64,000 bases of DNA from an uncultured Lentisphaeria bacterium (GCA_934661755.1 CAKUJM010000006.1:11134-75133), one strand, 5' to 3'; shown: positions 48,282 through 52,464, numbered from the stretch's first letter. A program made the numbers and translations. The notes: generated by a model not told the origin, from the letters alone.

Positions 48282-50789
48282 CTACTCCTCGCTTGATGAA
48301 TACTCCTCCTGATCCCGGTAGATGAAGGCAACCGACAGGAAAAGCCTGGTGAAATTGCGCAGGCCATCGGCGCCGTAGTCCGCCAACAGCGACTCAAGGT
48401 AGCGTCCGGACAGCTCCAGCGGCGGCCGGCCCGGCCATTGCCGTGCGCACAATTGCCAGAAATCCGCCTGGATGATCGCGGCGATCTCCTCCGGAGACAC
48501 CCCGGCGGCGTCATTTCTGCGATCCAGCGCATACGGCGCCAGCAACTGGCTTAGTACATATGGCAGACGATTGCCTTCGCCTTTCTGACGCAATGCCAGG
48601 TAGGCATAGAACAACTCAATGGCCGGCGACCCCCATTTTCCTCCCCATTGGATGATTTCGCCGCTGCGCTTGAGCAGCGACATCGAGAAGGCGGAACGAC
48701 CGTATTCGCCTTTGGCGCGCTTTTCCGCCTGCCTGGCCTCGTGGATTGCCCGCTGCAACGGAAAACTGTGGTGGGCAACGGCAATGCCGCAGGACACATC
48801 GCTTTCGGTGCCAGGAACCATCAATGACAGCCGATCCCTTCCGGAAGGCGCCACCACCCAGCCATGATGCTCCGACGAGATCTCGAAGTCGCGAAGGCGC
48901 GGTGAGGCGAAGGACATTGCCAGCTCCGGCGAACTGACAAATGCAGAATGGCATTCGCCACGGAACATCGACCGCAGCGCCAGGCCGGCTGCCAGCGCAT
49001 TTTCCGCCGGCACCATCGCCAGGACATCATCACCGCCGGCATAGATGAGCTGCCCGCCGAACGCCTGCACCACCGGCTCCACCAGATGCAACGCAAAATT
49101 GGAGAGGCACTCGCTGAATTGGCTATGCGCGGCCGGCGACATCCCCCGTCGGTAACCGTCAAACGCACTGATCCTGCCGAAGTACCGGCGTGCTTCGTCC
49201 GCCAGGCAGTCCTTGAAAAGCCGACCCTTGCGGCCAGAAAGGCGCGCGCCAATTTCATCGCCATCCATGGCAATGACTGCAAAGTATTTGCGGTTGCCGG
49301 CAATTTCCCGCGTGGAAGCGATGTGCCGATCCGGAGTCCCAAAGTCCAAATCCAGCTTGACTTCCTCGCGAAGATACCGCGGGAAATACCGCTTGGCAAT
49401 GGAGATCGCCCCATATGGCCCGTCATTTTCCTTGAAGATGTCGCCGGCCGCCCCCGACCGGATCCGCTGCCACAAAGCCTCCGGCCCGATCACCTCCTCG
49501 ATCCCGGAGAGGATGTCCTTGGGCGCCCCAGCCATCCCCGGAGAGTCGTCCCTGGCAAACTGGGCAAACTCTCGCAGCATACGCCGAGCGGCAAAGGCCC
49601 GGGCTGTCCGTTTGTACTGGATAGTCCAGGAGTTGCCGATGTTGGTCAGCGCAGCCTCTCCATTCCGCATCCCGAAATTGCGCTGGTCCCGGTCATCCGA
49701 TGGAACGCTTTTCGCCAGCCTCTCCAGTTCGGAATCGCAAAGTGACTCATCCCAATCCATGATCTGCCAGTGAATCTGCAAAAACTGCCCGACTTGATCC
49801 TTCCAACGTCCGCGCCACGCGTCAATGCCGGCTTCCGACAACGCCCCAAAGGACCGCCAGGCAAACTCGGTGATGCAATGCCACTCCCGGCGAATCGCGT
49901 CTTCCGCCAATTTCGCCATCTCCCCAGCACGGGCGGACGGAACCAGCATCAGAAAGCGATTCGGCAATGTCGGTATGCGCATCTTGTGGCCGATTCCAGC
50001 GGAAACCGCATCCCATAGCGTCCGCTCGCCCTCCAGTGGTATCGAAGCATAGATGTCCTTCATCGCATAGTCGAAGAACGGCTGTCCGCGCAACGACGGG
50101 AAAATCATGCTGTCCGGCCCCTGCTCCATCGACACTGCGGCCAATGCTTTGGATATCAGCCAGGAAAGAATGTAGCTGCCACTCCAGCAATCCCGCGTCG
50201 ACTTTGCGCACTCGATGAATGACTGCACCGGGCCAATCTGGAAAAGCAGGAAAGCCGGCTTAAGCCTGCCGCCTTCAAAACATCCGCGGAATGCCGAAAC
50301 CAACCCGTTGTGATTCCAAATCGTATGGTCCGGAATGCGGGTATCCGCAGGCAGGAATGCCAGTCGGGAATCCAGTTTCGCCGCCTCCTCCGGCCATCTC
50401 CGCCAATACAGCAGAAAACGATGCTTCCAATCCAGGGACTGGTCGACAATGCCGATCGCCCCCTGGAATTTGGCCTCAGCCTGGTCACGGGTGATGGCGC
50501 TGCCACTATACCAGAGTCCATCACAGAACGGATGGCGGAATGGCGCCTCCCTGAGACCCGTATACAGTGCCCGCATCACCGAAGGCCTCGGAAACAGAAA
50601 ACGGTCGGCCGCCGCCGCCACATGATCGCACAGCTTCGTCGCCTCGTCATCCCAGGCTTCCTTTTCGTCAAAGCCAATGCTGCGCTTGAATTGCTCCGCC
50701 ACCTCCTCATGGCCGCCAATCCCCAATGCCTTGCAGGGCGGATCGTGCAAAAACGCCTTTAACTTGCTCTTCCAAAAATCCTCTGTCAT
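48282..50789 (-). CDS. cas10: Cas10/Cmr2 large subunit (HD motif plus GGDD cyclase palm)
   Basis: 'KLKAFLHDPPCKALGIGGHEE' (Cmr2-type N-terminal HD region, as I recall it from Pyrococcus Cmr2) and 'LIYAGGDDVLAMVP'. The start was set to the ATG at 50789, downstream of the predicted promoter. Confidence 0.9.
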   Translation of the reverse strand: MTEDFWKSKLKAFLHDPPCKALGIGGHEEVAEQFKRSIGFDEKEAWDDEATKLCDHVAAAADRFLFPRPSVMRALYTGLREAPFRHPFCDGLWYSGSAITRDQAEAKFQGAIGIVDQSLDWKHRFLLYWRRWPEEAAKLDSRLAFLPADTRIPDHTIWNHNGLVSAFRGCFEGGRLKPAFLLFQIGPVQSFIECAKSTRDCWSGSYILSWLISKALAAVSMEQGPDSMIFPSLRGQPFFDYAMKDIYASIPLEGERTLWDAVSAGIGHKMRIPTLPNRFLMLVPSARAGEMAKLAEDAIRREWHCITEFAWRSFGALSEAGIDAWRGRWKDQVGQFLQIHWQIMDWDESLCDSELERLAKSVPSDDRDQRNFGMRNGEAALTNIGNSWTIQYKRTARAFAARRMLREFAQFARDDSPGMAGAPKDILSGIEEVIGPEALWQRIRSGAAGDIFKENDGPYGAISIAKRYFPRYLREEVKLDLDFGTPDRHIASTREIAGNRKYFAVIAMDGDEIGARLSGRKGRLFKDCLADEARRYFGRISAFDGYRRGMSPAAHSQFSECLSNFALHLVEPVVQAFGGQLIYAGGDDVLAMVPAENALAAGLALRSMFRGECHSAFVSSPELAMSFASPRLRDFEISSEHHGWVVAPSGRDRLSLMVPGTESDVSCGIAVAHHSFPLQRAIHEARQAEKRAKGEYGRSAFSMSLLKRSGEIIQWGGKWGSPAIELFYAYLALRQKGEGNRLPYVLSQLLAPYALDRRNDAAGVSPEEIAAIIQADFWQLCARQWPGRPPLELSGRYLESLLADYGADGLRNFTRLFLSVAFIYRDQEEYSSSEE

Positions 50790-50857
50790 TTGTCTGGTGA
50801 TTCCCCGTTGTTTGGTTGTGCCTGTAAAGGTTGCTTGAAGCTGACATATTGGCATAA

Positions 50858-50873
50858 AGCAAGCACTATGCCA
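50858..50873 (-). promoter_or_regulatory. Candidate sigma54 (-24/-12) promoter for the cas10-cmr operon
   Basis: The minus strand reads TGGCAT-AGTGC-TTGCT against the consensus TGGCAC-N5-TTGCW, with GG and GC correctly spaced. It overlaps the stop codon (TAG) of the upstream sigma54 activator gene. The -12 GC lies 69 nt upstream of the cas10 ATG. Confidence 0.6.
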
Positions 50874-52464
50874 AAGAAGAAAGGCGATGCCTCGGAGGCC
50901 ACTCGATGCCCAGACTCTTCATCTGGGCCGCCAGCCGCTGGTAGTTGCTGTATCCCAACAGGCTGGCCGCCTTGGACTTGCTGCCATCCGACGCCTTCAG
51001 CGCCCGGACAATGTAGTCCCGTTGCAGACGCTTGATGGCATCATCCAGATTGAAGTCCTCCCCACCTGCTCCAACATTGCCCCCCAGTGGAGAATCCGGC
51101 GCTGGAAGGTCAGACAGCATCCCCAGATCCTCTGGCGTGATCTCCACGCCGTCACACATGACTACCCCACGACAAATTGCGTTCTCCAACTGACGGACAT
51201 TGCCAGGCCAATCCTGTTTTTGTAGAAATAATTTTGTCTCATTCGAGAAATGTTTTTGTTGATAGTCGCGAATCACTTTGGCATTTTCCTGGTTTGCCTT
51301 CTCCAGCTTTTCTTCCGCGATCTTGATGATGTCCTCCCGGCGCCCCCGCAAAGGCGGAAGCCACAATTCCAAGGCCATCAAGCGATAGTAGAGGTCCTCG
51401 CGGAATGTCCCCTTTTTAACCATATCCAATAAATCGCGATTGGTGGCGGCGATAATTCTCACATCGGACTTCACAACGGCGTTTCCCCCGATTCTCCGGA
51501 AAATCCGGCAAGTCGGGTTTCCACCTTCTGGCGGCTGAAGCACTCGGAGCAGTTTCACTTGCATCGGCAACGAGCATTCGCCGATTTCGTCCAGGAAGAG
51601 CGTACCATCATCGGCTTCCTCGAACAGGCCCTTCTTTGCCTTGTCGGCACCGGTAAAGGCGCCTTTCTCATGGCCAAAAAGCTCCGAATCCAGCAGATTT
51701 TCCGGAAAGGCGCCACAATTGACGGCGAAAAACCTCCCTTTGCCGGCCCTTTGGCTGGCATTGTGGATTGCACACGCAAACCGCTCCTTGCCGACACCGC
51801 TTTCACCGTGGATCAACACATTGTATGGCGACTGGGAAAAACGCTGACCCTGGACTTTTGCGCGGCGCATGGCCTCGCTGTCACCGATGATGTCGGCAAA
51901 ATGCTGTTCCAGTCCAGGAATCCCCTGCAACGCCGCAATTTTACGGGTGAAGCCGTCGGCAAGCGCCATGGCCAGATTGAAGGGGATGACGGATTCGGAT
52001 ATCCCGTATTTCCGTGACACCTGGAGAAAGGCGTCCGCCGGATAGACGGTCTTCCCCAGCAGCACGAGAATCGCCGCCATTGTCGGAGTTCCGGGCGACA
52101 ACAGAAAATGACAGGTGTCCTCCCCTCCGCACCAGTGCCTCCGCAGCGCCGCATCCGTCTTTTCATATACTTCCGCATAATTGCTGGGATCTTTCAGCTC
52201 CGCGTGGATAATCTCAACCGGGTGCGGGAAGAGATATTCCCTATAGCGTTTGGCAAGGTCGTCGTTGCTGCGGCTCCATAGCAGCACTGCCCGGTCATAA
52301 GCGCGCCCCTTCAAAATGGTGATCACCGGTCCTTCGGTGGTTTTCTCATCCGGCGACTTCCCGATGCAAAGCTCTACCAGCTCCTTCGCCTGGGCATCAC
52401 CGGCGACCGCCATTCCCAAAAGGTCGGCATCCCCCACCCAGCTGAACAATACCTTTTTTGCCAT
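50866..52464 (-). CDS. RtcR-like sigma54-dependent transcriptional activator: CARF-like N-domain, AAA+ (GAFTGA) core and an HTH
   Basis: N-domain 'KKVLFSWVGDADL' and 'FLLSPGTPTMAAILVLL'. Walker A 'GESGVGKE', 'GHEKGAFTGA', Walker B 'LFLDEIGE', 'REDLYYRL'. C-terminal HTH 'SKSKAASLLGYSNYQRL'. ATG at 52464 with an AAGGAAG SD sequence. Confidence 0.85.
   Translation of the reverse strand: MAKKVLFSWVGDADLLGMAVAGDAQAKELVELCIGKSPDEKTTEGPVITILKGRAYDRAVLLWSRSNDDLAKRYREYLFPHPVEIIHAELKDPSNYAEVYEKTDAALRRHWCGGEDTCHFLLSPGTPTMAAILVLLGKTVYPADAFLQVSRKYGISESVIPFNLAMALADGFTRKIAALQGIPGLEQHFADIIGDSEAMRRAKVQGQRFSQSPYNVLIHGESGVGKERFACAIHNASQRAGKGRFFAVNCGAFPENLLDSELFGHEKGAFTGADKAKKGLFEEADDGTLFLDEIGECSLPMQVKLLRVLQPPEGGNPTCRIFRRIGGNAVVKSDVRIIAATNRDLLDMVKKGTFREDLYYRLMALELWLPPLRGRREDIIKIAEEKLEKANQENAKVIRDYQQKHFSNETKLFLQKQDWPGNVRQLENAICRGVVMCDGVEITPEDLGMLSDLPAPDSPLGGNVGAGGEDFNLDDAIKRLQRDYIVRALKASDGSKSKAASLLGYSNYQRLAAQMKSLGIEWPPRHRLSSLA

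Follow-up and report, generated by a model that had tools for sequence, protein, structure and literature searches.

A predicted sigma-54 promoter at the stop codon of an RtcR-like CARF activator gene is aimed at a type III-B CRISPR operon

The way in which type III CRISPR systems are held silent and switched on is, to our knowledge, poorly understood. The collateral nucleases that they trigger make these systems costly. A sigma-54 promoter is essentially inactive as long as its ATP-driven activator is missing; a bacterial enhancer-binding protein (bEBP) gated by a CARF domain would therefore provide an unusually tight signal-dependent switch. We analyzed a stretch of 64,000 nucleotides from an uncultured Lentisphaeria bacterium (GCA_934661755.1, CAKUJM010000006.1:11134-75133; called the window below, with positions counted from its first letter), in which the gene of an activator of this type lies directly ahead of the cas10 gene of a type III-B (Cmr) operon. 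A reading made from the sequence alone, the sequence-only reading, had proposed that a -24/-12 promoter overlapping the activator stop codon gates the expression of this operon in response to a CARF ligand. The locus raises the question of whether the promoter element is real, whether the N-terminal domain of the activator is a CARF domain, and which signal it would sense. The elements on which the argument turns are the following:

50866-52464, minus strand: activator gene (bEBP), ATG at 52464, TAG stop at 50868-50866, 532 amino acids (aa), with RtcR-like CARF, sigma-54 AAA+ and helix-turn-helix (HTH) regions
51970-52464, minus strand: N-terminal CARF domain, aa 1 to about 165
52420-52443, minus strand: CARF motif SWVGDADL
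52078-52101, minus strand: CARF motif LSPGTPTM
51364-51891, minus strand: sigma-54 interaction AAA+ domain, aa 192-367 (Pfam Sigma54_activat, 2.6e-63)
51784-51807, minus strand: Walker A GESGVGKE, aa 220-227, intact
51646-51663, minus strand: sigma-54 contact loop GAFTGA, aa 268-273, intact
51577-51600, minus strand: Walker B LFLDEIGE, aa 289-296, intact
50947-51030, minus strand: Fis-type HTH_8 DNA-binding motif, aa 479-506 (Pfam, E 3.7e-5)
50858-50873, minus strand: -24/-12 element TGGCATAGTGCTTGCT (TGGCAT-AGTGC-TTGCT), an exact match, GG at 50872-50871 and GC at 50860-50859
50845-50849, minus strand: predicted transcription start
48282-50789, minus strand: cas10/cmr2, 835 aa
49026-49037, minus strand: GGDD cyclase motif of cas10, intact

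The sequence check reproduced TGGCAT-AGTGC-TTGCT from 50873 to 50858 on the minus strand, with the TAG stop of the activator inside the -24/-12 element (context ...TCT TTG GCA TAG TGC TTG CT...). The -12 GC is separated from the cas10 ATG at 50789 by around 70 nt, and the open reading frame (ORF) and gene calls place no gene between the two, as had been read from the DNA. Exact matches to TGGCAY-N5-TTGCW occur twice in the 64-kb window versus 0.22 expected, and none of 100 shuffles gave two; when one mismatch was allowed, no enrichment was observed in the window (7 matches versus 5.96 expected). Within the window alone the match is suggestive. It gains its significance from its position and from its conservation across related loci, described below. 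These comparisons strongly support a real -24/-12 element aimed at cas10, and they predict promoter activity. With the usual spacing of 11 to 13 nt past the -12 GC, the geometry of sigma-54 promoters would place the start of transcription at 50845-50849, and the predicted 5′ leader from this start to ATG 50789 would measure about 58 nt.

The length of this leader depends on the cas10 start codon. The longest ORF begins at ATG 50855, 2 nt past the motif; this candidate was rejected, the resulting extension of 22 aa not being conserved. The N-terminus MTEDFWKSKLKAFLHDPP matches MTDEFWKAKLKAFLHDPP of a sister lineage (locus L006), and gene callers give cas10 835 aa. Because of this conserved N-terminus and the length given by the gene callers, the true start is ATG 50789, in agreement with the sequence-only reading.

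The sister lineage was reached through the closest homologue of the activator (P0002), which is 46% identical and heads a locus with the gene order activator, cas10, cmr3-4-5-6-1, cas1. Identity with the window is 50-68% for the Cmr proteins of this locus and 58% for its Cas10. The sister activator ends with ...AAA TTG GCA TAA GTT TTG CT, which gives TGGCATAAGTTTTGCT with the TAA stop inside the motif. Both the tail before the motif and the leader after it have diverged between the window and the sister lineage, and the motif is retained. A metagenome scan yielded two further type III-linked contigs, both belonging to the sister lineage. In a neighbour-joining tree, the two type III-linked activators appear as sisters on long branches with weak support.

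The conservation was then measured across the wider family, which comprises around 90 full-length homologues of the activator at 38-46% identity. A genome scan gave 80 loci, distributed among Planctomycetota, Lentisphaerota, Myxococcota, Acidobacteriota, Gemmatimonadota, Pseudomonadota and others. The promoter survey covered 64 loci, all non-redundant and each with its activator ORF complete; TGGCAY-N5-TTGCW was searched on the same strand from -40 to +150 of the activator stop with at most one mismatch, GG and GC being invariant, and the rest of the same loci, both strands, in windows of equal size, served as background. The motif was found near the activator stop in 45 of the 64 loci (background 0.005 per window), and an exact match in 24 (background 0.0007 per window). 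Its start often lies 1 to 4 nt past the stop; in the Victivallaceae relative L009, for example, TGGCACGGTATTTGCT is located 2 nt past it, and in the window, the sister lineage and L014 motif and stop overlap. Conservation at orthologous loci, which the sequence-only reading had named as a check, is thus observed both in the survey and in the sister lineage. Many restriction-modification (R-M) loci of planctomycetes carry an in-frame ATG 13-14 nt past the -12 TTGC (L012, L019, L035, L047, L048, L051, L052, L060, L064 and L071); from this spacing, sigma-54 transcripts of these loci would be leaderless or nearly so.

The genes that follow the activator vary. A type I hsdR comes first in 35 of 48 loci, an N6-methyltransferase in six; in second place, hsdM was found in 24 of 43. 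The other close homologues precede type I R-M systems with or without KilA-N, AAA_15/AAA_21 and similar genes, and across the family the defence cargo, oriented like the activator, includes type I R-M, AAA_15/21, NACHT and others. No cas10 was found near the activator in any of the 80 loci of the genome scan. Judged from these sequence comparisons, the activator gene and its predicted 3′-fused sigma-54 promoter form a conserved unit ahead of varied defence cargo, and the window holds a rare type III-B version of a family-wide defence regulator, not a CRISPR-specific device. The core of the earlier proposal, a signal-gated cmr operon, is therefore supported by the comparison; its CRISPR-specific framing is not, most relatives heading R-M or other defence operons.

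We then considered the activator itself. The protein combines a Sigma54_activat AAA+ domain, in which Walker A, Walker B and GAFTGA are present, with a C-terminal HTH, which are the features of a bEBP, and AAA_lid_14 was also matched by Pfam (6e-17). The N-termini of the homologues read M-K-x-V-L-F-x-W, and the activator starts at ATG 52464. Identical copies of the activator are present in human-gut (Hadza) metagenome contigs, and the nearest relatives of its N-domain in the genome collection are metagenome-assembled genomes of Victivallaceae/Lentisphaeria. In BLASTP, the full-length protein shares 28% identity with RtcR in an alignment of 472 aa that spans residue 86 to the C-terminus (E 1e-34). 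The activator was rejected as RtcR proper: its NCBIfam NF038308 score of 301.9 bits falls short of the curated equivalog threshold (650), and no rtcA or rtcB is found nearby.

The N-terminal domain proved harder to place by simple searches. Scanned alone, the N-domain of the window gave a weak match to Csm6_CARF (E 0.013), and PF06956 (RtcR) did not match the window protein itself. A word-index search with the N-domain alone returned no matches, so that an exhaustive HMMER scan was needed; it collected 349 clusters at E<=1e-3, in which a protein length of around 500-540 aa prevails. Pfam RtcR is matched, weakly, by 21 of 29 family N-domains (best 2.7e-7), and Csm6_CARF likewise by 21 (best 1.1e-6). 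Of the Pfam matches that the sequence-only reading had anticipated, Sigma54_activat and HTH_8 were thus obtained, while that of the RtcR N-domain appeared in relatives and not in the window protein. Profile comparison was more informative. The family N-domain profile aligned with the N-domain of E. coli RtcR in hhalign with 94.4% probability (E 8.9e-8); LSPGTPxMAAVWVLLGK of the profile pairs with ITTGTHVAQICWFLLAE of RtcR, so that LSPGTPxM stands opposite ITTGTHVA, as the RtcR signature given in the sequence-only reading had implied. In the PDB, the profile finds its best match in Enterococcus italicus Csm6, namely in the CARF domain (6tug, E 1.7e-4). Furthermore, the AlphaFold2 model of the N-domain (pLDDT, the predicted local distance difference test, 89.8) contains six strands (residues 4-9, 58-63, 83-87, 117-121, 145-150 and 154-158) and a beta5-beta6 hairpin. 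Foldseek searches of the PDB with this model gave 40 matches at E<=1e-3; each of the 50 best matches listed is a CARF protein (Csm6, Can2, Card1, Cam1, Cad1 and ring nucleases). Profile and model together identify the N-terminal domain as a CARF domain of the RtcR/Csm6 type, and the RtcR-type CARF, bEBP and HTH architecture first proposed is borne out by Pfam, hhalign and the fold matches.

The operon ahead of which the activator stands, and its surroundings, comprise the following features:

47070-48275, minus strand: cmr3
46200-47042, minus strand: cmr4
45803-46177, minus strand: cmr5
45021-45806, minus strand: cmr6
43956-45014, minus strand: cmr1
44143-44158, minus strand: second exact -24/-12 match TGGCATCGCCATTGCA (TGGCAT-CGCCA-TTGCA), inside cmr1
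43579-43959, minus strand: orf126 (126 aa), no Pfam or NCBIfam match
42499-43527, minus strand: cas1
42216-42443, minus strand: cas2
36764-41765, minus strand: CRISPR array of about 5 kb, 3′ of cas2, with around 65 repeats of about 37 nt (GTCACAAAAGCCTGTCGGCTTGGCAGGCATTTCTGTC on the plus strand)
52511-52539, minus strand: sigma-70-like promoter candidate for the activator gene (TGGAGA-17-TATAGT), a consensus match only
52685-54397, plus strand: Card1-like CARF nuclease (570 aa), divergent from the activator, presumed to be an effector activated by cyclic oligoadenylate (cOA)
54448-55596, minus strand: tyrosine integrase (Phage_integrase), adjoining the Card1-like gene

The locus contains cas10/cmr2 with its GGDD motif, cmr3, cmr4, cmr5, cmr6, cmr1 and a CRISPR array, and belongs by these genes to type III-B; no cas6 was seen among its called genes. 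The second exact match precedes the group of orf126, cas1, cas2 and the array by about 186 nt, and it is either an internal promoter for this group or a chance occurrence. As a conserved internal promoter it was rejected, no counterpart being found in the sister type III-B lineage; orf126 is itself absent there, and cas1 directly follows cmr1. For the divergent Card1-like gene no sigma-54 site was found, even with one mismatch. The Card1-like protein is about 200 aa longer than Card1, and in the scan, made on the longer ORF translation of 613 aa, the matches to the endonuclease and CARF domains of Card1 were confined to residues ~278-556, with no assignment for the N-terminal part. The block formed by the regulator, the Cmr genes and the array may reside on a mobile island. 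Elsewhere in the window, FtsW/RodA, SecDF, UvrC and a radical-SAM enzyme point to a chromosomal context, and at 1643-4891 (minus strand) lies the gene of a large hybrid sensor histidine kinase that includes a receiver domain.

Taken together, we consider it probable that a CARF-gated activator of the family type fires the sigma-54 promoter of the cmr operon in response to a family-wide cue. The activator would be produced from its own sigma-70-type promoter. RNA polymerase carrying sigma-54 would form a closed complex on TGGCAT-N5-TTGCT, over the stop codon of the activator gene. Engagement of the CARF domain by a ligand or a partner would then release the AAA+ ring, the GAFTGA loops of which would remodel sigma-54 and allow transcription to start near 50847. 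The transcript would run across cas10-cmr3-4-5-6-1 and probably onward through cas1-cas2 and the CRISPR array. The domain architecture, the sequence of the promoter and its conservation among relatives are observed here; that the activator acts on the promoter before cas10, and that its CARF domain gates this action, is what we infer.

The nature of the signal separates this reading from one in which the system amplifies itself: basal Cmr with target RNA would yield cyclic tetra- or hexaadenylate (cA4/cA6), which would bind the CARF domain, activate the sigma-54 promoter and lead to more Cmr. In favour of such a loop, the GGDD motif of Cas10 is intact, and the adjacent Card1-like effector suggests that the locus does signal with cOA. 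Moreover, both in sequence and in fold the CARF domain is best matched by Csm6 proteins with bound cA6 (6tug, 1.7e-4 by profile and 3.8e-7 by fold; 8pe3), and S-W-V-G-D-A-D in the beta1 loop and G-T-P-x-M align with S-P-I-G-N-T-D and G-T-P-Q-M of E. italicus Csm6 (EiCsm6). However, the invariant residues W9, G11, D14, G125, T126 and P161 are common to the window protein and its R-M-linked relatives. Most members of the family stand before R-M or other operons that have no cyclase in their vicinity, and yet share these invariant pocket residues, which makes an intact cOA produced by Cas10 a less likely ligand. EiCsm6 requires N10, T114 and Q116 for cA6 sensing (PMC7101355); their equivalents by profile alignment are D12, T126 and T128, so that the threonine alone is retained and two of the three residues are substituted. 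Card1-type effectors, in addition, typically respond to cA4, and cA6 and cA4 effectors seldom co-occur (PMC11229360). The cOA feedback that the sequence-only reading had put forward as one option is weakened by the shared pocket and by these substitutions, and we now hold it to be unlikely. The signal is most likely an infection or RNA-damage cue sensed by the whole family, which we favour over intact cOA. RtcR provides a precedent in its sensing of 2′,3′-cyclic-phosphate RNA (PMC7790460), and an RNA-end cue has already been proposed for RtcR-like defence regulators (PMC4012209, PMC11090510). Here, 2′,3′-cyclic-phosphate ends could arise from cleavage by Cmr4, from the Card1-like nuclease or as linear breakdown products of cOA such as A2>P.

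Several observations weigh against a promoter gated in this way. No enhancer (upstream activating sequence, UAS) was found among the repeats of the window, by aligning its DNA to that of the sister lineage, or in k-mer, palindrome and position surveys of the family; the only signals that these surveys gave came from conserved HTH-coding sequence (NYQxL, GNK), and a UAS at the usual distance would fall within the HTH-coding region of the activator. The gene of sigma-54 itself, rpoN, was not among the ten large ORFs scanned in the 64-kb window; indirect support for it is provided by the intact GAFTGA and Walker motifs and by the TGGCACGGTATTTGCT element of the Victivallaceae relative L009. The association with type III-B is known from two lineages only. 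Finally, the cas operon may also be expressed by read-through from the promoter of the activator, since activator and cas10 are set apart by no more than 76 nt and a weak terminator-like hairpin of 5 bp, which precedes the motif.

Extended to its limit, this last point amounts to a third account, in which read-through from the sigma-70 promoter of the activator drives most of the expression and the -24/-12 element is silent or vestigial, for instance because the cassette was acquired horizontally by a host that makes poor use of it. The co-directional arrangement of activator and cas10, the small gap, the weak hairpin before the motif, the sigma-70-like candidate upstream of the activator and the absence of rpoN from the ORFs scanned would all fit, and the integrase adjoining the locus suggests mobility. 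What argues against a vestigial element is that GAFTGA, Walker A and Walker B are all intact, that the consensus is matched exactly and is kept amid diverged bases in a sister lineage whose activator is 46% identical, and that the Victivallaceae relative has its own copy just past the stop. We regard this account as very improbable and keep to the gated sigma-54 promoter.

An inverted repeat with 11-nt arms that are 91% complementary (GGCGGCCAGCC-N24-GGCTGGCGGCC) is present at 50926-50971, within the HTH-coding sequence; it is centred some 100 nt before the predicted start, which corresponds to the usual enhancer distance, and is only weakly mirrored in the sister lineage.

How does this arrangement compare with known systems? 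Makarova and colleagues described in 2014 RtcR-like CARF/NtrC/HTH proteins often found with R-M systems and predicted their activation of sigma-54; the RtcR-like family was listed there among those not typically near cas genes (PMC4012209). Bell and colleagues reported in 2024 RtcR homologues heading CoCoNuT and R-M superoperons (PMC11090510). The present activator resembles these regulators in its three-domain architecture, in sequence (43-46% identity), in its 5′ position in the operon, in its direction and in its predicted dependence on sigma-54, but it differs in its cargo, which here consists of the type III-B cmr genes, cas1, cas2 and a CRISPR array. Furthermore, the sigma-54 promoter is a prediction in both studies (PMC4012209, PMC11090510), whereas it is located here at the activator stop in around 70% of the loci. 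The RtcR of E. coli and Salmonella, the activator of the rtcBA RNA-repair genes, likewise joins CARF, sigma-54 AAA+ and HTH domains and gates a sigma-54 promoter; once its CARF domain is deleted, RtcR is constitutively active. In E. coli, however, the target is divergent across an intergenic region of 188 bp, while here it is co-directional and immediately downstream, and the rtcA/rtcB partners of the E. coli and Salmonella proteins are replaced by the cmr genes, the Card1-like nuclease and the integrase as neighbours.

Among the regulators of CRISPR loci, Csa3 and other CARF-HTH factors also tie a CARF sensor to cas transcription, and binding of cA4 by Csa3 is cited in PMC11229360. Csa3 carries a winged HTH of the sigma-70/archaeal type and no AAA+ motor, unlike the present activator, the output of which would be an ATP-driven activation of sigma-54 with very tight off-states. 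The cas operon of Myxococcus xanthus controlled by Nla28 (MXAN7280) likewise has a sigma-54 promoter (TGGCACC-N4-TCGCG) ahead of its cas genes that is served by an enhancer-binding protein; in the paper, however, Nla28 figures as an activator of development induced by starvation, with no description as a CARF protein, and it forms no cassette with the cas operon (PMC9765219). In the CalpL-CalpT-CalpS system, a type III system is tied to an alternative-sigma response through the cA4-triggered release of an extracytoplasmic function (ECF) sigma factor (PMC11229360), but there a protease/anti-sigma cascade acts downstream of cOA, whereas the present activator gene stands before the effector operon. 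In the literature on RtcR or bEBPs together with type III CRISPR, we found no report of such an arrangement; one survey of type III ancillary genes explicitly excluded transcription factors. The sequence-only reading was likewise not aware of an experimentally characterised sigma-54/CARF-controlled type III operon; the Nla28 operon offers a partial precedent for sigma-54 control of cas genes (PMC9765219). The type III-B cargo is new for a regulator family that is known computationally and experimentally uncharacterised; it is not a new kind of switch.

A CARF-gated bEBP at this position would control the whole unit made of effector, adaptation genes and array. The significance would be high if the CARF domain sensed the signalling products of the type III-B system itself. 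In such a scheme, which we find doubtful, the system would tune its own abundance through intact cOA, its 2′,3′-cyclic-phosphate breakdown products (A2>P/A4>P) or RNA ends produced by Cmr4 or the Card1-like nuclease, any of which would bind the CARF domain and activate the promoter, and the activator with its promoter would be a portable cassette. Effector, adaptation genes and CRISPR RNA would then stay off until the first contact with an invader and be amplified by positive feedback, and the activator with its stop-fused promoter would serve as an infection-inducible cassette for any defence operon. For the family as a whole, the survey turns a decade-old prediction of RtcR-like, sigma-54-dependent regulators of R-M operons into a concrete predicted promoter architecture that extends across phyla, and it points to a modular inducible-defence cassette and a shared infection signal.

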